Virus record (IMG/VR): IMGVR_UViG_2721755676_000001
Reading direction: 5' to 3' (one strand)
DNA from: a virus
Lineage: Duplodnaviria; Heunggongvirae; Uroviricota; Caudoviricetes
DNA length: 64,000 nt
The notes below the pieces were generated by a model, which worked only from the letters and a program-made list of their open reading frames with translations, did no database searches and was not told the origin of the DNA. The translations under genes were made by a program, and so were the position numbers. Positions 1,052 through 63,991 of the stretch are shown here, piece by piece (position 1 is the first letter of the stretch; each line of letters starts with the position of its first letter).

Positions 1052-1318
1052 ATGACGTTAACCGATAAACAAAAGGACATCATCAAAACGCTCAATCTCG
1101 GTTATGAGCGAGGTCATCTACTTGACCTGGACGAATTGCTTGAAGTTTTGCCGTACAAGACAACCAAGCAAAGTATCCAGTTCTCAATTCGCGCTCTGAT
1201 AAAAAAGGGGCTGGTGGAGAAAGGGCATACGCGCCAACGCAGTGACAATCGCTATCACCGCCGAACTCTTGGGTTAACCACTTTAGGTCGAGCCAAAGCG
1301 AAGTTACTGGTGATGTAA
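1052..1318 (+). CDS. hypothetical small basic protein
   Basis: ORF with AAGGA RBS 8 nt upstream; same strand as neighbours. Confidence 0.55.
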   Translation: MTLTDKQKDIIKTLNLGYERGHLLDLDELLEVLPYKTTKQSIQFSIRALIKKGLVEKGHTRQRSDNRYHRRTLGLTTLGRAKAKLLVM

Positions 1319-1397: not shown

Positions 1398-1513
1398 CTT
1401 CGTAAGACATGCCAGACCTAATTAAACACCCCAGAAAACAAGTTGGTTAGCAGATGCAGTAAACAAGTTGTTTTAGAGCGCATGGACGCGCTCTGTGTGT
1501 TTTAGAGGGATCT

Positions 1514-31490: not shown

Positions 31491-32248
31491 TTGGTCAGGC
31501 GAACAGATTAATCCCTGAAATAGAAGACTACAGCAAGGTCTTGTCTGAAATGCCGAGAGCGACGAGAATTATCGCTCTCGGTGAGTTCTATTTTATCTCC
31601 CGAGGTTTCGATCTAATTCGATTTACCGAATACGAGCTTGTTGATTCGGCCTATGAACGCTGTATTGTTGGCGAGTGTCTTGAGTCATGTGATCCTGATT
31701 ACCAAGAGCAGGAAGTTAAGCGACTCAAACGTGCTGGTTACACACCTCTTGAGATAGGAGCAGAAATTGAATCCTACAAGTTGCATGTGGGGCAGCCAGT
31801 CCAAACAGTCTTCCGCGTGGCCTACTGCGAGTTTCCAATCAAGGATAAATCTGGAGTAAAAGTCAGCGCCAAGCAGATTAGAGGGGTTTTTACTCATGCT
31901 GATTATATGGGATTAGGCATCGCAAGTTTTGCTTACCTTTATCTCGTAGATAAGTATCAGTACTTGGTTTGCGATACGTTACAGACGGTAAAAGGCGCAA
32001 CTCTTTGGGCTGTGAGTATGCGCAAACATGGACTGGTCGAAATTTACGATACGAAGAACGAAAATTTTATAGAGGAATTGGGTGAGGATGCCTGTGGCGT
32101 AAGTGGTTTTATTCCGTGGGATATCGGTAAGTCTGACGGAGGCCAGATGCGAAGACGTGAAGAGTGGGGGACTAATAAAATCAATCTCACCCCAGGTGCT
32201 TGTACTCATATAGTGAACATTCTGACTAAACGATCTATGAATCAATAA
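31475..32248 (+). CDS. hypothetical protein, possible GNAT-like fold
   Basis: Overlaps upstream gene by 16 nt; segment IRGVFTHADYMGLGIASFAYLYLV weakly GNAT-like; followed by intrinsic terminator. Confidence 0.45.
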   Translation: MAPSLIGQANRLIPEIEDYSKVLSEMPRATRIIALGEFYFISRGFDLIRFTEYELVDSAYERCIVGECLESCDPDYQEQEVKRLKRAGYTPLEIGAEIESYKLHVGQPVQTVFRVAYCEFPIKDKSGVKVSAKQIRGVFTHADYMGLGIASFAYLYLVDKYQYLVCDTLQTVKGATLWAVSMRKHGLVEIYDTKNENFIEELGEDACGVSGFIPWDIGKSDGGQMRRREEWGTNKINLTPGACTHIVNILTKRSMNQ

Positions 32249-32249
32249 A

Positions 32250-32269
32250 CCCGCTACGGCGGGTTTTTT
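32250..32269 (+). terminator. intrinsic terminator (CCCGC-TACG-GCGGG + TTTTTT)
   Basis: GC stem plus 6-T run immediately after stop at 32248. Confidence 0.7.
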
Positions 32270-32397
32270 GTTATTAAGCCCCCCCTATGTACCTATCATT
32301 AAACCTTTACACCGCAGCCGTAGGCATTTAGGCTATATCACATATAAGAAAACAAGTTGTTTCAGACGATAATTATATACGCAAAGGGAACTCTCCA

Positions 32398-33066
32398 ATG
32401 ACCAAGATCTTTGTGGTTGGCGGCACAAAGGGCGGGCCTGGCAAATCCACCGTTGCCCAGCAAATTGCCGTTTGCCTGAAAGTCAAAAAGAAGAAGAAGG
32501 TTTATATTACCGATATAGATATTCAGCGCACGACAACGAGCTGGTGTGAAGACCGTCGACAGAACGAAGACCTTGAGCTGATTCCTTTTGCATACGTTCA
32601 GGATGACATCATTAAGCACCTAAAATCGCTTCAGGGTAGAGCTGAGTTTGTAGTGGTAGATGCTGGTGGCTTCGACTCCGAAATTCAGCGACAAGCGATG
32701 CTGATGGCTGACGTTATCATTATCCCGCTGCGTCCTAAGCGTCGTGATTTGAAATCTTTACGTGACATCGATCCTATTATCGACAATGTTCGCAATGTAA
32801 ACGATAAAGTGAAGGTCCGCGCGGTCATGAACCAGTGCCCGGCTTTGCCATCACAAGTGTCTCGCATTCTGGCGGCTAAAGAGATTGTTGAGACGTTTGG
32901 AATCGAGTCTGCGCCAGTCAATCTATATAACCGCAACGTCTATGATGATGCGGAAGAGTCTGGTCGTTCTATCTTTGAAATGACCGGTAGCGAGCGCGAC
33001 AAAAAGGCGGAAGCCGAGTTTGAAGAATTTGTAGATTATCTGTTGAGTCTGGAGGAAGAAGAATAA
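32398..33066 (+). CDS. ParA/MinD-family partition ATPase (small type Ib-like)
   Basis: Deviant Walker A GGTKGGPGKST at N-terminus; 222 aa without N-terminal HTH; AAAGGGA RBS. Confidence 0.8.
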   Translation: MTKIFVVGGTKGGPGKSTVAQQIAVCLKVKKKKKVYITDIDIQRTTTSWCEDRRQNEDLELIPFAYVQDDIIKHLKSLQGRAEFVVVDAGGFDSEIQRQAMLMADVIIIPLRPKRRDLKSLRDIDPIIDNVRNVNDKVKVRAVMNQCPALPSQVSRILAAKEIVETFGIESAPVNLYNRNVYDDAEESGRSIFEMTGSERDKKAEAEFEEFVDYLLSLEEEE

Positions 33067-33425
33067 TGTCCATGAAAATGGGTGACCTAGCAAAGCGCAA
33101 AGAGCCTGATGCACCGGCTAAGAACACAACTCCTTTGCGCCAACCAGTCAGACCACAGGGACGCCCGACTCGTGGCAAAGAGAAAATTAAAAGCCGCACA
33201 ATGTCACTGGAGGACGAATACTTCGAACTGCTGGAGATGATGAAGTTCATCCCTCGCTTCGAGAAGTTCACTCGTTCTGACGTGATTCGAGCAGCCATTT
33301 TCCATCTGGCAGAGAAGTCACCGCAGGAAATCGAGGACATCGTGAAATTGAATGAGGCGATCACCGCTGCCGATGTCACGATGCGTACCGATGAAATCAA
33401 ACGAGAGTTGATGAAGAAAGGTTAA
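33066..33425 (+). CDS. small ParA partner protein (putative ParG/ParB-like centromere-binding protein)
   Basis: 119-aa basic protein translationally coupled (TAATG) to the ParA-like gene; role inferred from synteny. Confidence 0.45.
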   Translation: MSMKMGDLAKRKEPDAPAKNTTPLRQPVRPQGRPTRGKEKIKSRTMSLEDEYFELLEMMKFIPRFEKFTRSDVIRAAIFHLAEKSPQEIEDIVKLNEAITAADVTMRTDEIKRELMKKG

Positions 33426-33430
33426 AAATC

Positions 33431-33461
33431 ATGCATTGGCGCGTACATTGCGCCAATGCAT
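33431..33461. terminator. 12-bp perfect stem-loop (ATGCATTGGCGC-GTACATT-GCGCCAATGCAT) between convergent genes; possible bidirectional terminator
   Basis: Read directly; no strong T-run. Confidence 0.45.
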
Positions 33462-33477
33462 AACTACAGTGTCAGCT

Positions 33478-34245
33478 TTATGCCGCGCTAACACTATGTT
33501 CAGTCCTAACCACCCCAACCTTCACAAAAGGGCTACCGTAGCTTGGTGGCTTCTTGATTAATTTGCCTACATACAGTTTTCTAATATGCTCATCGGCTAT
33601 TCTGCCAACAAATTCATAACGTTTTGTGTCGGGGCCAAGAGCTATATCCCTTGTAAAGTACTGCTGAGAACCGGCTTTGACCCAGCATTCAATCTGATAA
33701 ACTTCCATTATCAGCCCACCATATGTAGCGTAGGCATATTTGAGATTCTCGTCTCTTGGAACCTTTGCCCATACGCCACGCGTAGCTTCATATAATGCCA
33801 GAGCGGACATTCCTGACTTGTAGGTGCTGTTTAGCAGGAAGGCAAGACCGGCGTGCTCAGGAGCAATTTCAGTTTCCTCTTGCAGCACTAAGTGATGGTA
33901 GGCGTCCAGTGATATTCTGCCCATCATGGAACCACTTCCTCGTACCTTATTCGTAAGCTCTCCGACCCCCATAAGGTCGATGCATGTCGCCTCAACAAGT
34001 TTGGCTGTGGTTTCATCCATACCATGACGAAGTATATCTATGCCTAATTTTTTATTAGCCAAAAGTTCTTTGATCCGCATGGATTTGGGAGAGTCATCGG
34101 GATACTTGATGTGATCGAGACAACGAGTCGATTTGCCTTTTCCTATGTAAAACGGTCTTTTCATCTTGTCTTCTGTATCATAGAGACAGTAAACATAGTA
34201 TTTAGCCTTATCCAATGATCTCGCGTATACCGATAAATCGTCCAT
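33478..34245 (-). CDS. GIY-YIG domain endonuclease (homing-endonuclease-like)
   Basis: N-terminal YYVYCLYD...PFYIGKGK matches GIY-x10-YIG; lone minus-strand gene among plus-strand genes. Confidence 0.75.
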   Translation of the reverse strand: MDDLSVYARSLDKAKYYVYCLYDTEDKMKRPFYIGKGKSTRCLDHIKYPDDSPKSMRIKELLANKKLGIDILRHGMDETTAKLVEATCIDLMGVGELTNKVRGSGSMMGRISLDAYHHLVLQEETEIAPEHAGLAFLLNSTYKSGMSALALYEATRGVWAKVPRDENLKYAYATYGGLIMEVYQIECWVKAGSQQYFTRDIALGPDTKRYEFVGRIADEHIRKLYVGKLIKKPPSYGSPFVKVGVVRTEHSVSAA

Positions 34246-34356
34246 TATTGCATCTCTTTGCTACTGACTAATGCGTTCTATTTTACACATAAGTTTTTAA
34301 TCAATTTAACAGGCTCAAAGTGTAGAGCTTCTGGGCGTCTAAGACGACAAGTTATG

Positions 34357-34409
34357 CCTGCTTCTGTATATAAATAATAAGTAACTTATTAAATATATAC
34401 GGAAGCAGG
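34357..34409. repeat. 53-bp near-palindromic element, copy 2 (identical to 1343-1397 except one TA unit)
   Basis: Read directly; lies in divergent intergenic region before replication module. Confidence 0.8.
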
Positions 34410-34492
34410 TCTTTTAAAAGACACCACCAGAACAACTCCCTTCCGTTTCCACTTCCAAAAACTGCCACCAGTCGCTATCATCCGCTCATTGT

Positions 34493-34510
34493 GATAAGTA
34501 AGTAACTACC
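34493..34510 (+). promoter_or_regulatory. junction motif GATAAGTAAGTAACTACC
   Basis: Read directly; TAA in three frames; 16 nt upstream of ATG 34526. Confidence 0.4.
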
Positions 34511-34525
34511 AACTAGGTGAGCCAC

Positions 34526-35266
34526 ATGAGCCAAATCTTTTTCGATACCATCGACAACGACCAGTACGACTTCATGACAGAGTGGAATACCGCTGTTATG
34601 GACAAGTGGGTCGCTGAAAACATTGGTTTGTCGCGCTGTAAAGACGAGGCTGAACTCTTCGAGACGAAGTGGTTTGATTACCGCGACATGCATCCTCTCA
34701 TGGCCACCTGTCTTTTTACGGAGGCATACAAACGTCAGTACTCAAATATCATGCTGACGCACGGTCGCGAACACTTTGAAACAGCTCCGTTCACCACCGG
34801 GTTAAAACGCCTGCCTTATCAGGAGTTGTCGACTGCCAATAAAACGTCGCTATGGAAAGCACGCCAGTTTGCGGATCGCTATTGCTGCTCATACGACTAC
34901 TTTATCTCCACCGTTCTTTCCGCAGCTGCACGACGGCTGTGGGACAAGCTGCCGCGCCCACAGCATTTATGGCAGCCAGAACTGATTGAGATATTTGAAG
35001 AGAAATTAGCCAGACGCGCAACAACCCGTCTGGATGACTCTCTGGTTAGCTTTAAGCATATGGGAGACATGCAGTTCAACCCGATTCAGGAAAGCTATTT
35101 TGAGTGGATTCTGGAGCGTTTGCGCACCATCCCTCGCAGCAAGCGCATACGCGCAATTTTCTCCGCTATCTGGCTAATGGAAATCGTTCCAGAGCGCCTT
35201 ATTTCCGCCCACTTTCCAGAAGAACTGGAAGAAGCACGGCGGTTTATTGATCCCCTATCTAATTAA
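34526..35266 (+). CDS. hypothetical protein (first gene of replication module)
   Basis: ATG 34526 with AGGTGA 5 nt upstream (track ORF begins at GTG 34517). Confidence 0.55.
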   Translation: MSQIFFDTIDNDQYDFMTEWNTAVMDKWVAENIGLSRCKDEAELFETKWFDYRDMHPLMATCLFTEAYKRQYSNIMLTHGREHFETAPFTTGLKRLPYQELSTANKTSLWKARQFADRYCCSYDYFISTVLSAAARRLWDKLPRPQHLWQPELIEIFEEKLARRATTRLDDSLVSFKHMGDMQFNPIQESYFEWILERLRTIPRSKRIRAIFSAIWLMEIVPERLISAHFPEELEEARRFIDPLSN

Positions 35267-35309
35267 CTAATACTAGAAAACAATTTGTTTAAAAAACAAA
35301 GGAAAGCAC

Positions 35310-42054: not shown

Positions 42055-42126
42055 GATGGTGTAGCTCAGCGGTAGAGCAGTTGGCTGTTAACCAACTGGT
42101 CGGTGGTTCGAATCCACCCACCATCG
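42055..42126 (+). tRNA. tRNA-Asn (anticodon GTT)
   Basis: Cloverleaf folded by hand: acceptor GATGGTG/CACCATC, anticodon loop CTGTTAA, T-arm GGTGG-TTCGAAT-CCACC, discriminator G then CCA. Confidence 0.85.
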
Positions 42127-42134
42127 CCAATTTA

Positions 42135-42218
42135 GGGGAGTTAGTCCGTAGGGGCAGCGGAGTAGACTGTAAATCTACTGTCATGGCGACTCGGGTGGTT
42201 CGACTCCATCACTCCCCA
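42135..42218 (+). tRNA. tRNA-Tyr (anticodon GTA), long variable arm
   Basis: Acceptor GGGGAGT/ACTCCCC, anticodon stem GTAGA/TCTAC with loop CTGTAAA, long variable arm, TTCGACT T-loop, CCA encoded. Confidence 0.8.
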
Positions 42219-42225
42219 CCAAATT

Positions 42226-42298
42226 GCCGGTTTAGCTCAGTTGGTAGAGCGCCTGCCTTGTAAGCAGGATGTCAGCGGTTCGAGTCCGCTAACCGGCA
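42226..42298 (+). tRNA. tRNA-Thr (anticodon TGT)
   Basis: Acceptor GCCGGTT/AACCGGC, D-arm GCTC-AGTTGGTA-GAGC, anticodon loop CTTGTAA, T-arm AGCGG-TTCGAGT-CCGCT, CCA encoded. Confidence 0.85.
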
Positions 42299-42525
42299 CC
42301 AATACAACGATAAGATCATTACGGTTAATCGTCGTTCATGTGCACAATGACTGGTCGAAAGGTAGTGATCTTACCGTTGTGGTGGATTCGCAGACTGATG
42401 CGATAGCTTTCTTGGATGTTAGGGAAATGCGGCCGCAAATCTTCCCTTTCGCGAGCGGTGATCGTCCGTAGTCCTAATTGGCTGCACCGTATGCCGGAGA
42501 TTCAGTACCGGCCACCACAACGGCC

Positions 42526-42609
42526 GGAGAGTAGGGAGCATGGTGCTCAAGCGGTCTTGAAAACCGTCCCATTGCGCAAGCGATGATGGTTCGATTCCAT
42601 TACTCTCCG
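42526..42609 (+). tRNA. tRNA-Ser (anticodon TGA), long variable arm
   Basis: Acceptor GGAGAGT/ACTCTCC, anticodon loop CTTGAAA, long variable arm, T-loop TTCGATT, discriminator G, CCA encoded. Confidence 0.7.
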
Positions 42610-42789
42610 CCAGACACAGCGTTGAGCGGTTTGGCCTTTTAATCACCCAGATTAAGACTCCGCTAACATAAACCAGACCGCTCAACGCTGTGATAGACAA
42701 TTACGGCAGACGTTCTTAACCATAGCTTGCTAACATCCTAGCAACACTTTTTTCAGCGCAAAATTCAAAGGGGCTTCGGCCCCTTTTTG

Positions 42790-45113: not shown

Positions 45114-46217
45114 ATGAAAAATAGCTTTGACAGAGCACGCGCTGCGGAGAACACCTCAAAAGAGGCGATAGAGTATCTCGAAAGAGCATCTCAAATGCAG
45201 GCCGTTATGATCTCCCAGGTCAGCAATGACATGAGATTCTCGGACGCATTCATGTTATTCACTCGCTTATCTCTGCTGATAACCAGACGTCGGCCAGAGA
45301 TCGCTGTTCATTGTATTTTGATACATGTTTTGCCGCACATTGCCGATGTAAAAGTAAGTGACATTAATAGGTTCATGGTGAACCAACTGGTCAACCCACT
45401 AATACTGGATGGCAAAATTGTTATGGGCCGCCGCGTTTTCTCTCTGATGAAGCAGTTCCTTAGCTGGTGCGCCTTCCAGGGGATGATAGACGTGTCACCG
45501 TTAAACGATATGTCACTAAACAAAGTTGCCGGTGGCGCAAAGCCCACACCTCGCGAGCGGAAGCTGACCGACGCAGAGGTATGGGTGTTCTGGAATATAT
45601 GGGACTACTTCAATGTGTGCGCTGGTACAAAATGGGCGGCCAGGCTGTGTCTTGTATCCGCAAGACGACCTGACGAAGTACTGCGGGCTAAAAAAAGTGA
45701 GTTCAATCTTAAGCGTGGGGTTTGGAATCAAGGCAAGAGGAACAAATCTGCCCGTGAGCATTCTCTGCCTTTAAGCTCATTAATGCGCACTTGTATTGAA
45801 GAGTTGTTCGAATATGGTAAAGACAGCCAGTGGCTCGTGCCTTCGAATAAAAAAATCGGGAAAGACCTTCCTATGTCTAAAGTGGCAATAGCCCAGGCAT
45901 TACGTCGTATTCTGGAACGACCAGAACTGATGGAGCTTGAGCCATTTACACCCCGAGACTTGCGCCGTACTGCGCGTAGTTACTTCCCAGCATTAGGCAT
46001 AAGCCAGGAGGTATCACGCAAAATCATGAACCACAGTCTTGAGGGGATAGATCGAGTCTACGACCGGCACGATTATATGGACGAGATGCGAGACGCCTTA
46101 GAAAGTTTCTCGACGTACATCGCATCAATCGTAGAGCAACCGGATTTAGACGAAATTGACCACAAATTCAAGGGAGATCGTCTATCAACAGAGCTTATTC
46201 GTGTAAATTTTTCATAG
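45114..46217 (+). CDS. tyrosine recombinase / integrase family protein
   Basis: C-terminal catalytic-region pattern TPRDLRRTARS...IMNHSLEGIDRVYDRHDY (R, H, Y positions); upstream Arg ARRPDEV; GGTGA RBS. Confidence 0.65.
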   Translation: MKNSFDRARAAENTSKEAIEYLERASQMQAVMISQVSNDMRFSDAFMLFTRLSLLITRRRPEIAVHCILIHVLPHIADVKVSDINRFMVNQLVNPLILDGKIVMGRRVFSLMKQFLSWCAFQGMIDVSPLNDMSLNKVAGGAKPTPRERKLTDAEVWVFWNIWDYFNVCAGTKWAARLCLVSARRPDEVLRAKKSEFNLKRGVWNQGKRNKSAREHSLPLSSLMRTCIEELFEYGKDSQWLVPSNKKIGKDLPMSKVAIAQALRRILERPELMELEPFTPRDLRRTARSYFPALGISQEVSRKIMNHSLEGIDRVYDRHDYMDEMRDALESFSTYIASIVEQPDLDEIDHKFKGDRLSTELIRVNFS

Positions 46218-46598
46218 AGACTTTATGGCCTCAACAACCTTTTGTGATGCGCCTTTCTCTTTACCGAATCGCTCGTTATATGCAGCAAGAACCTGTTTTT
46301 CGTCCTCGTTAAGAGGAGCGGTGCCTTCTTTGTATAAAAATGCTGCGAGTTCAGGTTGGCGTTCTTCCAGCACCATCATCATAAGACGACTTGGCTCAAT
46401 ACCCAGCGCCAGCGCCAACGGACGAACCTTATCGATAGGCAAAGGAATTTTGCCACTTTTAATTAAAGAAAGGTTGTTGGCATTTTTATAACCAATAAGT
46501 CTGGCTATTTGGGCCTGACTCATAGGTGAGGATTCAATCAGCCCTGCGATAAAAGCAGCATAGCGACTTTCTATAAATTCAATCTTGTTGTCAGACAT
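46212..46598 (-). CDS. XRE-family helix-turn-helix transcriptional regulator (putative repressor)
   Basis: HTH-like MSQAQIARLIGYKNANNLSLIKSGK; convergent with recombinase gene; AAAGG RBS. Confidence 0.7.
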   Translation of the reverse strand: MSDNKIEFIESRYAAFIAGLIESSPMSQAQIARLIGYKNANNLSLIKSGKIPLPIDKVRPLALALGIEPSRLMMMVLEERQPELAAFLYKEGTAPLNEDEKQVLAAYNERFGKEKGASQKVVEAIKSL

Positions 46599-46848: not shown

Positions 46849-47061
46849 ATGAACACCACTATTTCCAGCCTAATCGCTCTTGAGATCGGACACGTACAGA
46901 AATTAGCTGATGAGTGTGTAGCTGACATCCTCACCGATCTACCGAATGAGCAGATTCAGGTTGGTGTGAATGACACAACTGGCTTTATATTCGAACTTAA
47001 CAACAAACGCTTCACGCTTCTCAATATCGGCTCCGGGTCTTTAGCCGTCAGAATCTGTTAA
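46849..47061 (+). CDS. hypothetical small protein divergent from the repressor (Cro-like position)
   Basis: 70-aa ORF preceded by TATAAGTTAG; followed by stem-loop at 47074-47106. Confidence 0.35.
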   Translation: MNTTISSLIALEIGHVQKLADECVADILTDLPNEQIQVGVNDTTGFIFELNNKRFTLLNIGSGSLAVRIC

Positions 47062-47159
47062 CCCCTCTTCTCCCTGCGCGAATGGCTTAGTTCCCTGTTC
47101 GCGCAGTGCTACATTAAACACACTAGTAAATAATTTGTTTTCATAACAAAGGATTAGCC

Positions 47160-49363: not shown

Positions 49364-50599
49364 ATGACGACTACTGCACTGCAAAATGAAAAAAATCCTT
49401 CTGATTACCTTGTTTGCAAGTGGTGCGGCAAATCATTTCACTATTTTAAGTCCCATGTAGCCAATGGTAATTGCGAGGGCATTCCTGAGTCAGTAAAAGA
49501 TGCCGATCCTGACACCGTACTGAAAATGTACACAACGCAGTTTCCAGATGAACCAACGCTATCGAAAAAGGCACTTGATGCAATTCAAGCTAAACGTGCC
49601 GAGCAAAAAAGCGAAATGGCCAAATCTTCTGGCTTGACCAGTAGCCCTGGCTACACAGGCACAGTTGAGTACAAGACAGATCTGGTCGCAGCTCACGAAC
49701 TGCTAAACGTAACAGTGGAAGAACTCGGAACAAAACGTGGGACGCCGCTCATGGTTAGCGTCAACGTCAATACGCCGTATCCAGAGTTCGTTCCCGAAGT
49801 GAAGAAAGGCTACGTATATGGCGACTTCGAACTGATCAAAGATATTTTCATGATGCTTGAACTTGGCATACCTGGCTATTTGTGGGGTCATGCAGGAACA
49901 GGCAAATCGTCATTGCCTACACAGCTATGTGCTTTGCTCAATCGTCCGTTGATCCGTGCCCAACATACAGCATCAATGGAAGAGGCACATGTTACGGGGC
50001 AAATTCTGGCGCGTGATGGCTCTACGTATTTCGAACCTGGCTTGCTTGCGCTCGCAATGAAGCATGGCTGGGTTTACCTCGCGGATGAATACGACTTTGC
50101 GTTTCCACAAATTCTTGGCGTGTATCAGCCAGTGCTGGAAGGTGAAGCGTTGGTCATCAAAGAGGCAACTCCAGAATGGCGTCGCATTACTCCGCATGAA
50201 CGGTTTGCTTTCATTGGCACTGGCAACACGAACGGATCTGGTGATGAAACCGGCTTGTACCAGGGTACAAACATCCAGAACGCCGCGAACTTTTCGCGTT
50301 TTGGCATCGTTTCGAATGTGAAATACATGAGCAAAGACGCAGAGATCAACATGTTGACAAATGCAGGCATCGTGGATGAATACGCTGAAAAGATGGTTAA
50401 GTTTGCCGGTATCGTTCGCGATGGATACGAAGAACACCTCATTAGTCAGCCAATTGGCCCTCGTGAACTTTTGTTGTCGGCCAAGATTGGAATGATGCGA
50501 GGCGACTTTGTGACAGGTATTGAGCGTTCTTTCATTAACAAACTCCCTTCAGCTTCTGCACAAGCGGCTCGTGAAGTTGTTCAAAAAATATTTGGTTAA
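49364..50599 (+). CDS. CobS/MoxR-like AAA+ ATPase
   Basis: Walker A GHAGTGKSS, Walker B VYLADEYD; AAAGGAAA RBS. Confidence 0.75.
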   Translation: MTTTALQNEKNPSDYLVCKWCGKSFHYFKSHVANGNCEGIPESVKDADPDTVLKMYTTQFPDEPTLSKKALDAIQAKRAEQKSEMAKSSGLTSSPGYTGTVEYKTDLVAAHELLNVTVEELGTKRGTPLMVSVNVNTPYPEFVPEVKKGYVYGDFELIKDIFMMLELGIPGYLWGHAGTGKSSLPTQLCALLNRPLIRAQHTASMEEAHVTGQILARDGSTYFEPGLLALAMKHGWVYLADEYDFAFPQILGVYQPVLEGEALVIKEATPEWRRITPHERFAFIGTGNTNGSGDETGLYQGTNIQNAANFSRFGIVSNVKYMSKDAEINMLTNAGIVDEYAEKMVKFAGIVRDGYEEHLISQPIGPRELLLSAKIGMMRGDFVTGIERSFINKLPSASAQAAREVVQKIFG

Positions 50600-50601
50600 T
50601 C

Positions 50602-50805
50602 GTGCGTAAAGGATGTTTCGGCTCTCTTATCGCTGCTTCTGAAACTGGTAAGGCTTGTCTGGTGTGTCCAGACAAGCCCGATTGTCACCAATCAGCAAAA
50701 GAAGTTGCGATTTCGATGCATGGGAAGTTCGTAGGCTTCCCCAATGACAAAATCAAAAAAACCAGAAAGGTAAAAACACATGAAGGCACTGATGGTTCGA
50801 ACTGA
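50602..50805 (+). CDS. hypothetical small Cys-rich protein
   Basis: 67-aa ORF with C-x13-C-x2-C-x5-C pattern; overlaps polymerase start. Confidence 0.35.
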   Translation: MRKGCFGSLIAASETGKACLVCPDKPDCHQSAKEVAISMHGKFVGFPNDKIKKTRKVKTHEGTDGSN

Positions 50806-53800
50806 CTTCTCACTTGGGGAGTCGGCTCTAAAAGCAGAAAACGCGGTGAAGATTGCCAGAGAAGCTGGCTACACCGCTGTAATTTCAGCAGATAGCATGA
50901 ATATTGCGAGCGTTATTCCACTACAACGTGCCGCTGGTGACGACATGGCGGTTATTTGTGGTGTGAAACTAAACATTGTTGATGATCCCACATACGAGCA
51001 CCGGGCTAAACTTGCTAAAGAATCTATGAGATGTATGGAATCATTAGAGCGAGGACGTAACTACTCGTTTACCGCTCTAATTAAAAATGAGAAAGGATAT
51101 CGCGACATCTGCGAACTAATGACGGCGGCCAACACACGAGAACAGTTCTACTTTGTACCGCGTCTCTCGCTCGAACAGTTGGTTTCTACATATGCCAAAG
51201 GCAACATCATCCTGCTTACTTCCGACATCGGTAGCGTGTTCCAACGCAACGATTTTGCAAAAATCATAAGCACACTGATTACAGCGGGTGGAAAAGACAA
51301 CTTCTATAGTGTGGTTTATCCGCACCCTACCCCATTCTACGACCAGATTAACGTCCGGGCGATGAAAGTCGCCAGCGCATTGAAAATAGAGCCAGTGGCG
51401 TTCTATCCCGCTTATTACGAATCGATCGACGATGCAGACATTAAAGACATTGCGCACATGGTTACGAACAACATCAAAATCGACCAGCCGCATCGTCTGC
51501 GTATCCCCCACCAGCGAGATAACGCCGTCAATGGTCGCCGCCATCTCCTTGAGGCGCTTAAAGCCTTCTCCGTTCGCATGGATGTGCCGGTAACAGCTGC
51601 AATGGCCTCAACAACGCAGGATACCATTATCGATGCCTGCACATGGCGCTGGCATGAATTGCCGCCAGCACTGCCAAAGATGGCAGACGACGAGCCTGCA
51701 ACGCTGATGAAACTGGCTGTTGCAGGGCTGCGTAAACGTCTTACCACAAAAGAGTTTGGCTACACACCACCTGCTTCTGAGAACAGGGTTTATGTTGAGC
51801 GGCTAAAGTACGAAATGGACACGCTGACTCGCCTGGGATTCTGTGGTTACTTCCTGATGGTGCGCGATCTGATGAATCATAGTTGTGAAACTGGCATTCC
51901 CGTTGGGCCTGGTCGTGGTTCCTCTGCCGGTTCTCTGGTGGCGTGGTGCATAGGCATAACCAACGTCGACCCAATCCGTCACGGTCTTCTGTTTGAGCGT
52001 TTCATCAACCCTGAGCGTCTCGACTTGCCGGATGCGGACTTGGACTTCAGCCAGGCACGTCGCCATGAGGTGATCGAGTATCTGAATGAACGCTACGGCG
52101 AAGATTACGTTGCAGGCATTCCGAACTTCACCTACCTGGGCGCAGCCTCTGCACTACGTGACACCGCTCGTATTTATGGTGTGGAGTCCGCAGATATGGC
52201 GGTATCAAAAGAGCTGAAGAACGTCGAGGATGATAGCCTTCCATTGGAAGAGCTGCGCGAACAACTGGCAAGTCTCGACAAATACGCAACAAAATATCCT
52301 GATGCATTCAATGCAGCCTGCAAGTTACAAAGTCTTATGCGTGGCTTTGGTAGACATGCGGCAGGGATGATCGTAGCAGGTGTTCCTCTGACAGAACGTA
52401 CACCGGTTGAACGCCGTGGTGACGCGCGTTGTATCGCATTTGACAAGCGTTACTGCGAGGCTATGGGCCTAATTAAACTGGACGTACTTGGTCTGGCAAC
52501 TCTCGATTTGCTCGATAGTGCAAAACGCTACATAAAAGAGAACACAGGTGAAGATATCAATCTTGATGCCATTTCTCTTGAAGATCGCAAGGTGCTGGAT
52601 GGTTTTGCTGCTGGGTACACTCAAGGTGTTTTCCAGCTTGAATCAGGCCCAATGCGCAAGCTGCTTAAAGATTTAGGTGGTGGAATTGAGCCAATGAGCT
52701 TTAAAACGGTTGTTGCTACGACTGCGCTCTTCCGGCCGGGGCCAATTCAGTCAGGCATGTTGGATGACTATGTTTCTGTAGCCAAAGGCTTTATGACGCC
52801 GGAATCATTACACCCCGTTCTTGATGAACTTACCGCAGAAACAAATGGCGTGATTCTCTATCAGGAACAGACGATGAACGCGACTCGATTGCTTGCTGGC
52901 TTCACAATGGCTGAAGCTGACGGCGTTCGTAAAGCGATCGGCAAAAAAGACATGGAAAAAATGAAGAGCATGGGCGAGAAGTTCATCGTTCAGGCTCAAG
53001 CTGGCTGGATAGACGTTGAGCTGGAAGATGGCACTACACAGCGCATTCACCGTGCGGAACATTTTAAATGCGAAGACGGAACTCTGAAAACTGTCGAAGA
53101 GGCACTTGAGTACGGCGCAAAACTACCTATAAACGCAGTACGCGTTACAGCGTCACATCCAGGGCTATCAGAGATGAAAGCGAAGGAGATCTGGACCGCA
53201 TTCGAAAAGAATGGTGCCTACCAGTTCAACAAATCACACTCTGTTGCTTACTCCTTAATCAGTTATCAATCTATGTGGTTGAAAACTCATTATCCCGCGG
53301 AGTTCTTCGCTGCTGCTCTCACTATTCTTGGCGAAGATAAACACCAGGGGCTGGTTAAAGATGCGCTGACCTATGGTATTCGCGTATTGCCACCAGACGT
53401 TAACGTGTCATCTAACCGAATCGAGATCCGCACGCTTGAAGATGGCAGCCAGGTGCTGTATGCGCCCTTCTCTGCTGTGAAAGGGTGTTCTGAGAATGGC
53501 TGCCAAGCCATCATGAGAGCGCGAGAAAAAGTTGGCGGCAAATTCGAGTCACTGGCGCAATTCGAAGAAGCTGTCGAGAAACGTGCCTGTAATAGTCGAG
53601 TGCGCGAATCGCTGCAAAAAGTAGGGGCGTTTGCATCCATCGAGCCAGGCAGTCTGCCAGCAACTGATCCAGAGCGCCTACGCGACCAGGCTGAATTGAT
53701 GGGAAACCTTGTCATAGATGCAGTTAAAGCCTCACGTCCGTTTGAGATGAACCCCAAACGTTCGGCTGAAATTAACGTACTCATGACGCGGATGGCGGCT

Positions 53801-58642: not shown

Positions 58643-58834
58643 ATGAAGAAAGGTTTACTGGCAGTGATCGTGGCTGCTGTTTGCACAATGGGTCTTACAG
58701 GCTGCGATCGTGTTGAGCCTGGGTACGTTGGCATCAAAGTAAACAAATTGGGTGAAGACAAAGGTATCGGTGAAGTTGTCGGCGTTGGCCGTCAGTGGAC
58801 TGGTCTGAATACCGAGCTGTACACCTCTCTTTAA
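58643..58834 (+). CDS. small lipoprotein (short or truncated)
   Basis: Signal peptide with lipobox LTGC; only 63 aa; GGGGAAG RBS. Confidence 0.45.
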   Translation: MKKGLLAVIVAAVCTMGLTGCDRVEPGYVGIKVNKLGEDKGIGEVVGVGRQWTGLNTELYTSL

Positions 58835-58847
58835 GTCATCTTAAATG

Positions 58848-58895
58848 ACTCTGAGGTGTCTGTTAAACCTGTGGCGATTCAGTCTATTAAACCTG
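58848..58895. repeat. tandem direct repeat, 2 x 24 bp (GTCTGTTAAACCTGTGGCGATTCA / GTCTATTAAACCTGTGGCGATTCA)
   Basis: Read directly; one mismatch between units. Confidence 0.85.
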
Positions 58896-59066
58896 TGGCG
58901 ATTCACTTTATGGTGTCATAAACTTAAATCTAGCGCCGGGTAGAACAAGTTAATCGAACGATGTAGCGGCCATTTAGGCGTTACAGAAAGAACAGAATTT
59001 TAAATTTATAGTGAAGCCGTTGCAGCAACTTTGTGGGGTGCAACCAACACTGAACAGGAAAAGAAA

Positions 59067-61496
59067 ATGGATCATAGTGTACATAACAAGCTCATCTCAT
59101 TTATATGGAACATTGCCGACGACTGTTTACGTGATGTGTACGTTCGCGGTAAGTACCGCGATGTGATTTTACCTATGGTGGTATTACGACGTTTAGATAC
59201 GTTACTTGAACCCACCAAAGAAGCCGTGCTTGAAGAGGTCAAGTTCCAAAAAGAAGAGATGCAAGCCACGGAGCTTGATGATGAACCATTGAAGGCGGCT
59301 AGTGGTTATGTTTTTTACAATACATCTAAATGGACCCTGAAATCCCTGTTCAACACCGCAACGAATAACCAACAGATATTACTCGCCAACTTTGAAGAGT
59401 ACCTGCTTGGCTTTAGCGATAATGTTAAAGAAATCATTGAATGCTTTAACCTCAAGTCGCAAATTCGTCACATGGCCTCAAAGCAAGTCCTTCTTGATGT
59501 CGTCGAAAAGTTTGTTTCCCCTTACATCAACTTAACTCATGAAACGATCGAAGACCCAGATGGCAACAAGATGCCAGCCCTTACTAACCTGGGTATGGGG
59601 TACGTGTTCGAAGAGTTGATCCGTAAGTTCAACGAGGAGAATAACGAAGAAGCCGGTGAGCACTTTACACCTAGGGAAGTGATTGAGCTGATGACACACT
59701 TGGTTTTTGACCCAGTGAAAGAGCAGCTACCATTGACCATGACCGTTTACGACCCTGCGTGTGGTAGCGGTGGTATGCTCACTGAATCTCAAAACTTCAT
59801 TGAAGAGAAATACCCGAACGACAGCCGAGATATTTACCTTTACGGCAAAGAGATCAATGACGAGACCTACGCGATTTGTAAATCGGACATGATGATCAAA
59901 GGTAACAACCCTGAGAACATCAAGGTAGGCTCAACCTTGTCTACCGACGAGTTTGCGGCTTCTCGCTTTGACTTTATGTTGTCTAACCCGCCATACGGTA
60001 AGAGTTGGGCGTCTGAACAGAAGTACATTAAAGACGGCAGCGATGTGATTGACCCGCGTTTTAAGGTTAGCCTGAAAGACTATTGGGGAAATCTCGAAGT
60101 GGTGGATGCCACGCCACGTTCGAGTGATGGCCAGCTGCTTTTCTTAATGGAGATGGTCAACAAGATGAAAGATCCGAGCGTAAGTCCATTAGGCAGCCGG
60201 ATTGCCTCTGTTCATAACGGCTCATCGCTCTTTACCGGTGATGCGGGCGGTGGCGAAAGTAATATTCGTCGCTTCATCATTGAAAACGACATGCTAGATG
60301 CCATCGTTCAGTTACCTAATAACCTGTTCTATAACACTGGCATTACCACTTACATTTGGGTGTTGAACAACAATAAACCTGAGGCGCGTAAAGGTAAGGT
60401 GCAATTAATTGATGCCAGCTTGCTCTACCGTAAGTTGCGCAAGAACTTAGGTAACAAAAACTGCGAATTTGCGCCTGAGCACATCACGGAAATTACCGAT
60501 ACTTACCTCGCGTGTAAGGATGTTGAAAGAGCACTGGATGCAAACAATGATCCTGTTGGCATCGCCAGTAAGGTATTCAGCAATGACGATTTTGGCTACT
60601 ACAAAGTCACTATCGAGCGCCCAGATCGCCGCAAAGCCAAGTTTACTCAAGATGCCATAGCCCCACTGCGTTTTGATAAGCAACTTAGTGAAGTGATGGA
60701 GTACGTGTACGCAGAGCACGGCGAACGTGTTTACGAAAAAACTGGCTACGGGTCAGATCAGAAAAAGAGCTTCTTAAAATCCATCGAGAAAGACATTCTT
60801 TCTTGGTGTGAAGATAACGACATCAGTCTCAATGCTAAGGCTAAGGCCAAACTGCTTGATGTGAAACACTGGCTGGCGCTAAAAGCATTGCTTGAAACTG
60901 CACAAACGCTGATGGCTGACATCGGTAGCATTGAATTTGATGACTTCAATAGCTTTAAAACCCAAGTTGATAAATCGCTAAAAGCCCATGCTATTAAGCT
61001 TTCAGCACCTGAGAAAAATGCCATTCTTCACGCGGTGAGCTGGTATGACGAAACCGCCAAGAAAGTGGTTAAAAAGGTAGTTAAATTAACGGGTGATAAA
61101 TTAAACGACCTGCTGGAGCGCTATGAGTGTGAAGTCGCTGACTTGCCAGATTTTGGTTATTACCCCGTTCCTTCAGCAGAAGGCGGTAAAAAAGGCGAGT
61201 ATATCACTTACGAGACCAATTCAGACCTGCGAGATACAGAATCTGTTCCATTAAAGCAAAGCATTTACCAGTACTTCCTAGATGAAGTGAAGCCTCATGT
61301 CGATGAAGCATGGATAAACCTAGATACGGTAAAAATTGGCTATGAAATCAGCTTCAATAAGTATTTCTACCGTCATAAACCGCTGCGTAGTTTAGAAGAG
61401 GTTGCAACCGACATCATCAACCTAGAACAAAAAGCCGAAGGTCTCATTGCGCAGATATTGGGTGTTAAAGTGGCGGAAGCTCAGGGAGAAGCGTAA
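59067..61496 (+). CDS. hsdM: Type I restriction-modification system methyltransferase subunit (HsdM), long form
   Basis: N6-adenine methyltransferase motif IV NPPYG (MLSNPPYGKSW) and SAM-binding region DPACGSGGML; followed by HsdS; ATG 59067 with AGGAAAAG RBS. Confidence 0.85.
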   Translation: MDHSVHNKLISFIWNIADDCLRDVYVRGKYRDVILPMVVLRRLDTLLEPTKEAVLEEVKFQKEEMQATELDDEPLKAASGYVFYNTSKWTLKSLFNTATNNQQILLANFEEYLLGFSDNVKEIIECFNLKSQIRHMASKQVLLDVVEKFVSPYINLTHETIEDPDGNKMPALTNLGMGYVFEELIRKFNEENNEEAGEHFTPREVIELMTHLVFDPVKEQLPLTMTVYDPACGSGGMLTESQNFIEEKYPNDSRDIYLYGKEINDETYAICKSDMMIKGNNPENIKVGSTLSTDEFAASRFDFMLSNPPYGKSWASEQKYIKDGSDVIDPRFKVSLKDYWGNLEVVDATPRSSDGQLLFLMEMVNKMKDPSVSPLGSRIASVHNGSSLFTGDAGGGESNIRRFIIENDMLDAIVQLPNNLFYNTGITTYIWVLNNNKPEARKGKVQLIDASLLYRKLRKNLGNKNCEFAPEHITEITDTYLACKDVERALDANNDPVGIASKVFSNDDFGYYKVTIERPDRRKAKFTQDAIAPLRFDKQLSEVMEYVYAEHGERVYEKTGYGSDQKKSFLKSIEKDILSWCEDNDISLNAKAKAKLLDVKHWLALKALLETAQTLMADIGSIEFDDFNSFKTQVDKSLKAHAIKLSAPEKNAILHAVSWYDETAKKVVKKVVKLTGDKLNDLLERYECEVADLPDFGYYPVPSAEGGKKGEYITYETNSDLRDTESVPLKQSIYQYFLDEVKPHVDEAWINLDTVKIGYEISFNKYFYRHKPLRSLEEVATDIINLEQKAEGLIAQILGVKVAEAQGEA

Positions 61497-62818
61497 TGGA
61501 GCGTTTAGCATTGATGCCGAAATATGAGGATTATGTAGATTCTGGAGTTGAATGGTTAGGGGATTTACCGAGCCATTGGGACGCAGTAAAAATGAAGTTT
61601 CTTTTCAAAGATACGTCGATGAAAAACAAGCCTAACGAAACTTTATTATCTGTTACACAAAGTCAAGGTGTTGTTCCCAGAGAGTGGGTAGAAAACAGAA
61701 TGGTTATGCCATCTGGCAATCTAGAAAGCTTCAAGTTCATTGCAAAAGGTGACTTTGCTATAAGCCTTCGTTCCTTTGAAGGTGGTTTGGAGTATTGTCA
61801 TCATGATGGAATCATAAGCCCTGCTTATACGGTGTTAAAAACTAAGAAAGATTATCTACTTGCAGGATATTACAAATATTTGTTTAAAAGTCAGACTTTT
61901 ATTTCAGAGTTACAAACATCGATTGTAGGGATTCGTGAAGGAAAAAACATCAGTTATGAGGAGTTGCAATATTCACTTCTTCCTATTCCGGCTGAAGAAG
62001 AACAAACCCGTATCGCCAACTTCCTCGACAAGAAAACCGCTCTAATCGACGAAGCGATTTCGATCAAAGAGCAGCAAATTAGCCTGCTGAAAGAGCGTAA
62101 GCAGATCATCATCCAACAGGCGGTGACCCAAGGGCTTGATCCCAATGTGCCAATGAAAGACTCCGGTGTGGATTGGATTGGTAAGATTCCAGCGCATTGG
62201 GACGTTAAGAGGTTAAAATATCTTGGTAAATCGATCATTGGGTTAACTTATTCGCCAAATGATTTAAGTGATGAAAAAGGCGGAACTCTAGTTGCGCGAT
62301 CATCAAACTTATACGAAGGGAAGTTTAAGTATGGTGAAAAGGAAAATGTTTATATCAATTGCTTTATTCCTGAGCACTTAAAGCTTAAAAAAGGTGATAT
62401 TTTGATATGCTCCAGGAATGGAAGTCGAGACCTAATTGGCAAGTGTGCATTTGTATCTGACGCTGATGAGGGAAACAGCTTCGGGGCCTTTACTACGGTA
62501 TTCAGATCTAAACACAATGAGTATTTATTTTGCATTCTAAATAGTGATGTTTTCAAAATGTTATCAGGGACATTTCTTACATCAACAATTAATCAGCTTA
62601 CAGTGGGGAATCTTAATAGCATTTTTGTGCCTTTCCCCCCTTCTAAAAATGAACGAGATGGAATTATTACGTACATTAACAGATTAAATGGTGATGTTGA
62701 GCGAGCTATAGAGTATCAAAAAATAAAAATCGAAAAGCTTAAAGAATATAAAACCACCCTGATCAACAGCGCCGTGACAGGAAAAATCAAGATCACCCCA
62801 GAAATGGTTGAGCAATAG
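61496..62818 (+). CDS. hsdS: Type I restriction-modification system specificity subunit (HsdS)
   Basis: Two target-recognition-domain halves separated by conserved helical spacers (EEQTRIANFLDKKTALID and NERDGIITYINRLNGDVE); coupled to hsdM (TAATG). Confidence 0.85.
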   Translation: MERLALMPKYEDYVDSGVEWLGDLPSHWDAVKMKFLFKDTSMKNKPNETLLSVTQSQGVVPREWVENRMVMPSGNLESFKFIAKGDFAISLRSFEGGLEYCHHDGIISPAYTVLKTKKDYLLAGYYKYLFKSQTFISELQTSIVGIREGKNISYEELQYSLLPIPAEEEQTRIANFLDKKTALIDEAISIKEQQISLLKERKQIIIQQAVTQGLDPNVPMKDSGVDWIGKIPAHWDVKRLKYLGKSIIGLTYSPNDLSDEKGGTLVARSSNLYEGKFKYGEKENVYINCFIPEHLKLKKGDILICSRNGSRDLIGKCAFVSDADEGNSFGAFTTVFRSKHNEYLFCILNSDVFKMLSGTFLTSTINQLTVGNLNSIFVPFPPSKNERDGIITYINRLNGDVERAIEYQKIKIEKLKEYKTTLINSAVTGKIKITPEMVEQ

Positions 62819-62827
62819 GAAGCGAAT

Positions 62828-63991
62828 ATGTTCACGGTAAATCATCAGACCAACAGGATTAGTCCGGTTAAGACGAAGAGATTCAGTGAGTTGGGCTTTA
62901 CTGAGCGCAAAAATCTTCAGGAATGGTTGGCACACGAGCCTTCCGCACTGGGTGAAGAGCTGCTGATTATTCAAAAAGAGTTCGATGGCTTTGATGACAC
63001 CCGTGAACGCTTAGATTTACTGGCACTGGATAAAGATGGCAACTTGGTCATTATTGAAAACAAGCTGGACGACAGTGGCCGCGATGTGGTGTGGCAGGCG
63101 CTTAAATATGCCTCCTACTGCGCAAGTTTAACCAAAGCGCAAATCGTTGAAATTTACCAGCAGTACTTAGACCGCTATGAGCCTGTAACAGGAGAGGTTG
63201 ACTTGTTTAATACCCCTGCAAGTGCCTCTGCTAGAATATGTGAGTTTTTGGATGCGCCCGATCTCGATGAGTTAAAGCTCAACCTGGGTAACAGCCAGCG
63301 CATTATGTTAGTTGCGGCAAACTTTCGCAAAGAAGTGACCAGCACCGCGCTGTGGTTATTGGGTCAAGGCATTAGCATTGCCTGCTTCAAAATCACGCCT
63401 TATTCACTGGGTGAACAGCTACTGATTAATATTGACCAGATCATTCCAACGCCAGAAGCGAAAGAGTTGATGATCGGCATTAATGCCAAGGAAGCGGAAG
63501 AAAAAACCACCGAAGTGGTACTAAAAAACCGCCATACCGTGCGTCGCGAGTACTGGGAGCGTGCCTTAGAGGCGTTTCAGAAAAGCTCTTGCCAACTCTA
63601 TAACAACATTAGCCCAAGCAAAGATCATTGGTTATCAGCAGGCTCAGGGCTAAGTGGATGTCCGTATAACCTGATATTTCTGCAAAAAGAGCTTCGAGTA
63701 GAGCTTTGGATCAGCCGTGGGGTTACCGAAGAGAATAAATACCTTTTTGATTTGTTGAGTCAGTCCAAACAAGACATTGAGCATACTTTTGGTGCAGAAC
63801 TTGAGTGGATGAGGCTGGATGAGAAGAAATCTTGCCGTATCCAGTTTTCGACCAAAGCTGACGGGTTTAACAAAGAGACTTGGCCCCAAGCGGTTGCGTG
63901 GCACTTAGAGCAGATGACAAAGTTAGAAAAAGCCTTAAAAGGACCGCTGCAAAAAGCGGCTGAGGCAATGAAACAGAAGAATTTTGATTAA
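62828..63991 (+). CDS. hypothetical protein with PD-(D/E)xK nuclease-like N-terminal motif, embedded in R-M locus
   Basis: Motif LDLLALDKDGNLVIIENK resembles D...E-x-K restriction-endonuclease-fold signature; AGGAAG RBS; sits where accessory genes often lie between hsdS and hsdR. Confidence 0.45.
   Translation: MFTVNHQTNRISPVKTKRFSELGFTERKNLQEWLAHEPSALGEELLIIQKEFDGFDDTRERLDLLALDKDGNLVIIENKLDDSGRDVVWQALKYASYCASLTKAQIVEIYQQYLDRYEPVTGEVDLFNTPASASARICEFLDAPDLDELKLNLGNSQRIMLVAANFRKEVTSTALWLLGQGISIACFKITPYSLGEQLLINIDQIIPTPEAKELMIGINAKEAEEKTTEVVLKNRHTVRREYWERALEAFQKSSCQLYNNISPSKDHWLSAGSGLSGCPYNLIFLQKELRVELWISRGVTEENKYLFDLLSQSKQDIEHTFGAELEWMRLDEKKSCRIQFSTKADGFNKETWPQAVAWHLEQMTKLEKALKGPLQKAAEAMKQKNFD

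Follow-up and report, generated by a model that had tools for sequence, protein, structure and literature searches.

How a phage that carries a plasmid-type partition gene pair is kept and passed on in its host is the question raised by one locus in the 64,000-nucleotide stretch of IMG/VR record IMGVR_UViG_2721755676_000001 (the window; positions are those of this stretch), in which the gene for a small ParA-type ATPase is directly followed by that of a small basic protein. We consider it likely that the two genes form a functional partition (par) module of a phage-plasmid of the SSU5 family. The pair is a conserved, transcribed and translationally coupled combination of a small ParA and a basic partner, and in relatives the module lies exclusively on plasmids.

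The ATPase, with its deviant Walker A motif, is encoded exactly where an earlier note on this DNA had placed a ParA/MinD-type protein (Table 1). Its N-terminus, MTKIFVVGGTKGGPGKST, contains the motif K11-G-G-P-G-K16-S-T, which begins at residue 11 and includes the signature lysine K11 and the P-loop lysine K16; because this position leaves no room ahead of the motif, the protein has no N-terminal helix-turn-helix (HTH) domain. It thus has the features of a type Ib ParA, namely a length of about 200–230 residues, an xKGGxxK(S/T) motif and no N-terminal DNA-binding domain. Pfam gathering thresholds are passed for MipZ, AAA_31, CbiA and ParA, and PHROG 164 ("ParA-like partition protein") is matched with an E-value of 4e-51. 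In the PDB, the best matches are to ParF of TP228 and to a chain that was deposited under the name ParA (5u1g), each with an E-value of 1.2e-10; both align almost end to end, the 206-residue ParF with residues 9–199. A second "MinD-like" gene of the related phage Cyrano, annotated "septum site-determining protein" (CYRAN_99), was considered as a second ParA and set aside, being of ApbC/Mrp type and outside the window.

The stop codon of parA (TAA) and the ATG of the partner gene share one base (TAATG), giving a 1-nt overlap, although the Prokaryotic Genome Annotation Pipeline (PGAP) starts the partner 6 nt later in relatives. The protein has an isoelectric point of 9.6, and that of residues 1–47, which include 13 lysines or arginines, is 11.4; the earlier note had given this coupled basic partner of 119 residues exactly. 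As in type Ib systems, the partner gene lies directly downstream of parA and in the same operon, as indicated by the overlap, by similar transcript levels in the Cyrano lysogen and by 796 plasmid records with tblastn matches, in which the gene stands beside that of ParA on plasmids of phage-plasmid size. The partner has no Pfam family and is assigned to PHROG 5111 ("unknown function"). Its family is very narrow: in word-indexed and exhaustive searches, one returned 25 relatives and another 18 cluster representatives among 1.84 billion proteins. The alignment begins with an invariant MGDLAK(R/K), continues through a variable low-complexity linker and a basic PQGRPTRGK stretch, and reaches a strictly conserved I(K/R)SRT-S-E(D/E)E(Y/F) segment (IKSRTMS-EDEY in the window), after which come helices and the helix start (T/S)RSDV-RAA. 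In the AlphaFold2 model, residues 1–47 are disordered, with predicted local distance difference test (pLDDT) scores below 55, and helices span residues 48–59, 70–82, 86–97 and 101–118; a deeper alignment gave a mean pLDDT of 70, with 73–92 in the core.

Type Ib centromere-binding proteins have a flexible tail with an ATPase-activating basic residue, followed by a beta1-alpha1-alpha2 ribbon-helix-helix (RHH) fold (PMC5016525). The modelled layout of the partner matches this description, and an RHH fold appears plausible. Profile, PDB and hhalign searches found no significant link to any RHH family. The match to the aCcr1 family, which we take to be RHH, is weak and sub-threshold (E-value 2.3e-4), and hhalign sets CopG and omega in the expected register on the partner, but with probabilities below 3%. 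A more distant pair was found on a 30-kb Acinetobacter plasmid, whose ParA is 46% identical to that of the window and whose partner is homologous to the partner described here (hhalign probability 91.6%, E-value 8e-7). Because of this homologous pair, the association of this ParA clade with this type of partner is older than the phage-plasmids. Two other identities for the partner were rejected: the RelE/ParE toxin label of the Cyrano ortholog CYRAN_29 (OV696614.1), for which Pfam, NCBIfam and PDB gave no match and whose gene is coupled to parA rather than to an antitoxin, and a type Ia ParB/Spo0J protein, as no ParBc or HTH match was found in Pfam. The partner family is uncharacterised, unannotated and, in one genome, mislabelled.

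Sequence comparison assigns the window to the SSU5 phage-plasmid family. SSU5 and its relatives form a recognised phage-plasmid supergroup (PMC7969092), and the gene content and order of this group were found in the window: siphovirus structural genes, lysis genes, par, helicase/primase/ligase, cobT/cobS/DNA polymerase III (Pol III) and recombination genes. In DNA, the 5 kb surrounding the pair match the Escherichia phages PhiR41_1, CMS-2020a and Cyrano at 98–99% identity and Salmonella phage SSU5 at about 83%, all of them established phage-plasmids, and the order tail fibre, lysis genes, par, helicase, primase, ligase is identical across these four. Over positions 151–58822 the window is collinear with the E. 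coli plasmid NZ_CP083480.1 (the complete relative) at 79–99% identity. Orthologs of the pair occupy the same place, between the lysis genes and the helicase/primase operon, in SSU5 (SSU5_033/034), pHCM2, Cyrano (CYRAN_28/29) and PhiR41_1; their ParA proteins are 83–100% identical to that of the window (tblastn), and the non-coding block of 66 bp upstream of parA is common to all of these loci. The cargo on either side differs. Upstream, the window has two open reading frames (ORFs) without assigned function, whereas Cyrano, Enterobacter and pCAV elements carry a KacAT toxin-antitoxin pair; downstream, the window has a GIY-YIG gene, which SSU5, Cyrano and Klebsiella pJN2-26 are without.

The par region (32200–33600) was found in 736 PLSDB plasmids, 702 of them non-mobilizable and of about 110 kb, with those listed typically 105–125 kb in size. 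Among 5,426 complete E. coli genomes, 263 (4.8%) carry it, in 300 places, all of which are plasmids and none chromosomal. Cyrano (pLF82) is present at 5.5 copies per cell by quantitative PCR and also makes virions (PMC9928086). These results uphold the earlier proposal of a type Ib-like ParA pair in an extrachromosomal prophage, and they answer, for the family, the counter-case named with it, that of chromosomal integration only. Extrachromosomal maintenance holds for the family and would, by extension, apply to the copy in the window. The earlier note had also claimed a tyrosine recombinase, which is indeed present. Together with an HTH regulator, this enzyme could make the element an ordinary integrating prophage, with the recombinase as its integrase and the ParA pair as a remnant, and a chromosomally integrated SSU5 repB/parA fragment has been reported in S. 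Agona. For the family, this explanation is effectively refuted by the lack of any chromosomal place beside 736 plasmid records, by the plasmid state of Cyrano and by a pair that is intact, conserved and transcribed. The recombinase is putatively a multimer-resolution or an integration enzyme, and a role in dimer resolution is compatible with the total lack of chromosomal copies. The autonomous replication gene set of the earlier note stood in part. The phage-type replisome genes are present (DnaB-like helicase, primase, ligase, Pol III alpha, gp32-like single-stranded-DNA-binding protein, 5'-3' exonuclease and RecA), whereas the plasmid initiator, a RepB homolog of IncFIB type, was not found in the 64 kb; in relatives it lies outside the region homologous to the window. 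Because the window does not reach the RepB region, this absence was not counted against membership of the SSU5 family.

Expression was taken as mean normalised values from the supplementary table of published LF82 lysogen transcriptomes (Cyrano). The values for parA, the partner gene and the gene after it, CYRAN_30, are about 50, 89 and 55 units, compared with about 6, 21 and 11 units for neighbouring genes of the helicase operon; the HTH "putative repressor" beside the recombinase and the recombinase itself reach about 96 and 50 units. The par operon is on in the plasmid state, as expected of a maintenance function. This bears on another explanation, in which the pair would be a positioning or regulatory module of ParA/MinD/MipZ type, serving, for example, the placement of phage replication or assembly or interference with host division. 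By E-value the top Pfam match of the ATPase is MipZ, some PGAP records (several RefSeq E. coli plasmids) name it "division plane positioning ATPase MipZ", its NCBIfam ParA_partition score of 115.7 bits is under the 180-bit equivalog cutoff, and no published functional test of the pair was found in the literature searched. However, the MipZ structure match is confined to the N-terminal half of the protein, whereas similarity to plasmid ParF/ParA runs over its full length. The gene order, the small basic coupled partner and the toxin-antitoxin and replication neighbours are typical of plasmid par loci, and the pair is expressed in lysogens. Furthermore, the element is a low-copy plasmid, and the annotation of the complete relative shows no other partition gene pair of ParA type; no ParA-type ATPase adjoins the ParB/Srx-domain genes near the terminase, which Yersinia pMT1 has alongside its own type Ia parAB. 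A positioning module is therefore a very improbable account of the pair.

Recurrent homology breakpoints at 32246, 32291 and 32302, seen in hundreds of relatives, place the upstream block inside a mobile par module, which extends from about 32291/32302 to 33421–33429 and within which the approximately 107 bp upstream of parA are the sole non-coding DNA. The 66-bp block is identical at 60–64 of 66 positions (91–97%) in elements of SSU5, Klebsiella pJN2-26, Enterobacter, Buttiauxella and E. coli LR46, whereas third-codon positions of parA are 50–62% identical in the same comparisons (binomial P 1e-8 to 1e-15). By this measure, the block is under strong purifying selection, and the constraint extends over the spacer between the putative −35 and −10 elements, which an ordinary promoter would not need. 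We infer the TTTACA-17-TAGGCT promoter from this conservation and from positional equivalence with GATAAT at other promoters that bear the palindrome described below; a sigma-70 consensus scan of 32150–34600 found no promoter at threshold. The arrangement TAGGC-N3-TAGGC occurs at the par locus only, within the window as within the complete relative, and divergent par promoters (L012, L013 and L014) show it again, but shifted. In type Ib systems, the centromere is located upstream of the operon and is built from direct and inverted repeats (PMC5016525). The block is the most probable seat of the cis site, because it is the sole non-coding DNA that always travels with both genes and is under strong purifying selection; we place the centromere within it tentatively, at somewhat less than an even chance. 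No extended repeat array was found. In E. hormaechei p4-20710, about 11 tandem CAGTTTT heptamers lie between kacAT and the par promoter block, some 60–130 nt into the 360 nt upstream of parA; they were not seen in the other relatives examined. On Acinetobacter towneri pNDM-GJ01 (30 kb), five to six 22-bp iterons (GGAAAACGTCCATTTAGATCAA) at locus positions 1–150 precede the distant ParA-partner pair; they could be a centromere or Rep iterons, hinting at the cis site of the sister family.

The steps by which the module would act follow by analogy with the type Ib systems ParF/ParG of TP228 and delta/omega of pSM19035. ParA-ATP dimers would coat the nucleoid, while partner dimers would bind a cis site on the prophage, most probably in the 66-bp block, at either the par-specific TAGGC repeats or the 13-bp palindrome. 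The bound partner dimers would recruit ParA, and their flexible basic N-terminal tail, MGDLAK(R/K), would stimulate ATP hydrolysis. The resulting ParA gradient would separate the approximately five plasmid copies, such that both daughter cells inherit the element, and the same binding of the partner would repress the par promoter, providing autoregulation.

The likeness to TP228 ParF/ParG/parH includes a small ParA that lacks an HTH domain and, encoded downstream of it, a small partner whose basic N-terminal tail is predicted to be flexible and whose C-terminal part is helical; the cis site is expected upstream of the operon, overlapping the promoter. The differences concern the partner and the DNA. 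The partner has no detectable sequence or fold-search similarity to ParG, which has 76 residues; its 119 residues include two extra C-terminal helices, and in place of an ACTC-box array there are two TAGGC repeats and one 13-bp palindrome. In delta/omega of pSM19035, KorB/IncC of RK2 and SopAB of N15, short repeats or palindromes at several sites are recognised by the protein that binds the centromere, which is also a transcriptional regulator, and the 13-bp palindrome, at 16 promoters, has such a layout. Unlike the partner here, KorB and SopB are ParB proteins of HTH type, and their ParA proteins belong to other subtypes. Two type Ia systems, P1 ParAB-parS and the P7-like ParAB of pMT1, do the same job of segregating a low-copy plasmid prophage. 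Type Ia systems combine a large ParA bearing an N-terminal HTH with a ParB/Spo0J-type partner (401 and 323 residues in pMT1), and the pMT1 pair is unrelated in sequence to the small-ParA pair; pMT1 shares much of the SSU5 backbone.

Some observations weigh against a functional partition module. A stabilisation assay for this pair was not found in the literature searched. The window has neither element ends nor host flanks, and its own physical state cannot be read from it. The integrated plasmid fragment in S. Agona chromosomes, described in a preprint, carries the SSU5 repB/parA region and no phage genes. The upstream block holds two short TAGGC repeats and one palindrome, compared with the long arrays of parH or pTAR. 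Finally, at least 15 further promoters bear the palindrome, and pMT1 has kept it while lacking the pair, so that it may belong to another regulator.

This 13-bp palindrome, AAACAAnTTGTTT, occurs 5 times in the window with at most 1 mismatch, compared with 0.37 expected (none of 100 shuffles reached 5), and 16 times in the complete relative, compared with 0.46 expected, where it is by far the commonest palindrome of 6+6 form. Copies stand at the starts of the terminase, par, helicase/primase, cobT-Pol III and nrdAB operons and of many accessory genes. In the complete relative, all but one copy share the same architecture: a −10-like hexamer (GATAAT, TATTAT or TAGGCT), 12–14 nt ending in AAGA, the palindrome and, 15–40 nt further, the start codon. 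The copy beside the helicase gene is kept in 11 of the 11 relatives that reach this gene (SSU5, Klebsiella, Enterobacter, Kluyvera-type and pCAV); L011 stops short of it. In all relatives examined, including those of pCAV type, the copies at parA and at the helicase gene have invariant arms around a variable central base, a pattern typical of the site of a dimeric protein. The palindrome looks like a dispersed operator with several candidate binders. A search of 8.0 million papers did not find the sequence in this context, and no description of such a promoter-proximal, genome-wide palindrome was found in the literature searched.

The same palindrome would allow a wider role for the partner, as a global regulator that would bind all of the dispersed copies, so that the centromere itself would be dispersed and binding would both silence phage operons in the plasmid state and mark the element at many places for ParA. 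The strong enrichment, the intergenic position of every copy just downstream of a −10-like hexamer, the inclusion of one copy in the ultra-conserved par block and the invariant arms around a free centre would all fit such a regulator. The half-sites are spaced about 7 bp apart, similar to the spacing of paired omega heptads, and dispersed sites are familiar from the 12 O_B sites of RK2 KorB, the omega sites of pSM19035 and the P1 C1 operators. The phage-plasmid N15 offers a precedent, with four separate inverted-repeat (IR) centromere sites bound by SopB. Moellerella pW18-2-b also fits: its partner keeps the KSRT-S strand, and in its par promoter the half-sites are kept but arranged differently (ATTGTTT-N12-AAACAAT); elsewhere there is no enrichment of the full palindrome, the AAGAAAACAA half being found only at the par promoter and two other sites. 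However, pMT1, whose partition genes are type Ia ParAB and in which the pair has no homolog, keeps six palindromes at orthologous promoters. This argues against dependence on the partner, although it is not decisive, as pMT1 is a recent derivative and the time for decay was perhaps too short. Operons that bear the palindrome also differ widely in lysogen expression, par being on and cobT and the helicase near background. Nothing direct ties the partner to the palindrome, and the HTH regulator and an 88-residue ORF are other candidate binders. We consider a global regulator unlikely; if it were true, the partner would correspond, as an RHH-type protein, to SopB/IR1-4 of N15 or KorB/O_B of RK2 and would link segregation with the lysis-lysogeny programme.

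Apart from the upstream block as cis site of a dedicated par module, other centromere candidates were examined. Those of the earlier note, two 55-bp palindromes and a 24-bp tandem repeat, found no support, as neither tracks the par pair across relatives. The 55-bp palindromes are near-identical, AT-rich with GC clamps, fold at about −30 kcal/mol and lie at operon boundaries, upstream of the terminase and helicase operons. The helicase-side copy is not in Cyrano, pJN2-26, Enterobacter, pCAV and other elements carrying the pair, and one copy is kept in pMT1, which is without the pair. There are three copies in the complete relative and one each in pMT1 and SSU5; possible roles as insulator, terminator, ori or pac can be raised as questions. 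The tandem repeat is real, yet neither a 98%-identical relative nor pMT1 has it, and it is located exactly where collinearity stops and the type I restriction-modification (R-M) cargo starts, whose insertion junction it may mark. A hairpin beyond the partner gene was also rejected, being single-copy in the window, outside the module breakpoints and terminator-like in its minus-strand T-run. Homology to many relatives stops before this hairpin, at 33421–33429, and it is probably the terminator of the convergent GIY-YIG gene and part of a variable cassette rather than of the par module.

SSU5-type phage-plasmids are common in clinical Enterobacteriaceae, and the par region is present in hundreds of Klebsiella, Enterobacter and Salmonella plasmids; resistance genes are carried on these elements, whose repB and parA regions already serve as typing markers. 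Their plasmid life is established. GenBank and the literature already record the lifestyle, the family and the ParA annotation, and the window is near-identical to published genomes. The lifestyle inference was thus correct but is no new biology. No mapped centromere for this par locus was found in the literature searched. What is worth keeping is a centromere candidate narrowed to 66 bp, a mis-annotated partner family and a genome-wide palindrome that includes the par promoter. The block and the palindrome are concrete targets for binding, incompatibility and curing work.

Table 1. Positions in the window of the par locus, the dispersed palindromes and other features discussed in the text.
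Feature	Position	Strand	Remarks
parA	32398–33066	+	222 aa; small Walker-type partition ATPase; deviant Walker A KGGPGKST
Partner gene	33066–33425	+	119 aa; presumed centromere-binding protein; alternative start 33072
Intrinsic terminator of upstream gene	32247–32266	+	Left edge of par transcription unit; same hairpin in SSU5 and PhiR41_1
Ultra-conserved non-coding block	32300–32365	+	66 bp directly upstream of parA; putative par promoter/operator; centromere candidate
Putative −35	32306–32311	+	TTTACA; 17-nt spacer to −10
Putative −10	32329–32334	+	TAGGCT; downstream of 17-nt spacer
TAGGC repeats	32321–32325, 32329–32333	+	8-bp phased; overlap −10
13-bp palindrome AAACAAGTTGTTT	32350–32362	+	Between −10 and ribosome-binding site of parA
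13-bp palindrome copies	1436–1448, 1461–1473	+	Upstream of terminase operon (ORF 1514); conserved in pMT1 and E. coli relative
13-bp palindrome copy AAACAATTTGTTT	35278–35290	+	20 nt upstream of DnaB-like helicase gene
13-bp palindrome copy AAATAATTTGTTT	47128–47140	+	1 mismatch; upstream of cobT-like/AAA/Pol III alpha operon; orthologous site in pMT1
55-bp palindromes	1344–1398, 34357–34409		Rejected as centromere
24-bp tandem repeat	58858–58905		Two units; rejected as centromere
Hairpin	33431–33461	-	Perfect 12-bp stem; T-run on minus strand; folding energy −22 to −25 kcal/mol
GIY-YIG nuclease gene	33478–34245	-	LEM-3-like
Tyrosine recombinase	45114–46217	+	Pfam Phage_integrase 2.9e-10; weak NCBIfam integrase-domain match
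Weak-HTH regulator	46212–46598	-	128 aa; overlaps end of recombinase gene; ortholog of Cyrano "putative repressor"
Divergent ORF	46849–47061		70 aa
ORF, candidate palindrome binder	1052–1318		88 aa
hsdM	59031–61496		Type I R-M cargo
hsdS	61496–62818		Type I R-M cargo
DUF4268 protein gene	62828–63991		Type I R-M cargo
tRNA cluster	42055–42612		Asn, Tyr, Thr, Ser
Inverted repeat	42615–42692		20-nt arms, 38 nt apart

The HTH regulator faces the divergent 70-residue ORF over a 250-bp AT-rich spacer that has no copy of the 13-bp palindrome, and the two may possibly form an immunity switch. Just upstream of the terminase region, SSU5-type elements have two adjacent ParB/Srx-domain genes and an ABC-ATPase-like gene; these genes lie at 99756–101104 in NZ_CP083480.1, in a part beyond the window, are kept in pMT1 (50023–51389) and probably have no part in partition by the small ParA. 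The GIY-YIG gene, with a hairpin terminator of its own, separates the par pair from the helicase operon. Its cassette (33426–34300) is present in some relatives, whereas SSU5, Cyrano and pJN2-26 have other ORFs instead, and it behaves like a mobile or homing-type cassette.

The window also encodes terminase and structural genes, cobT/cobS-like genes, type I R-M cargo and four tRNAs. Collinearity with relatives stops at 58822, within a truncated SPFH-like ORF, and the R-M cargo follows. The tRNA cluster lies in a low-GC region, and an inverted repeat with 95% complementary arms stands directly after its tRNA-Ser gene.

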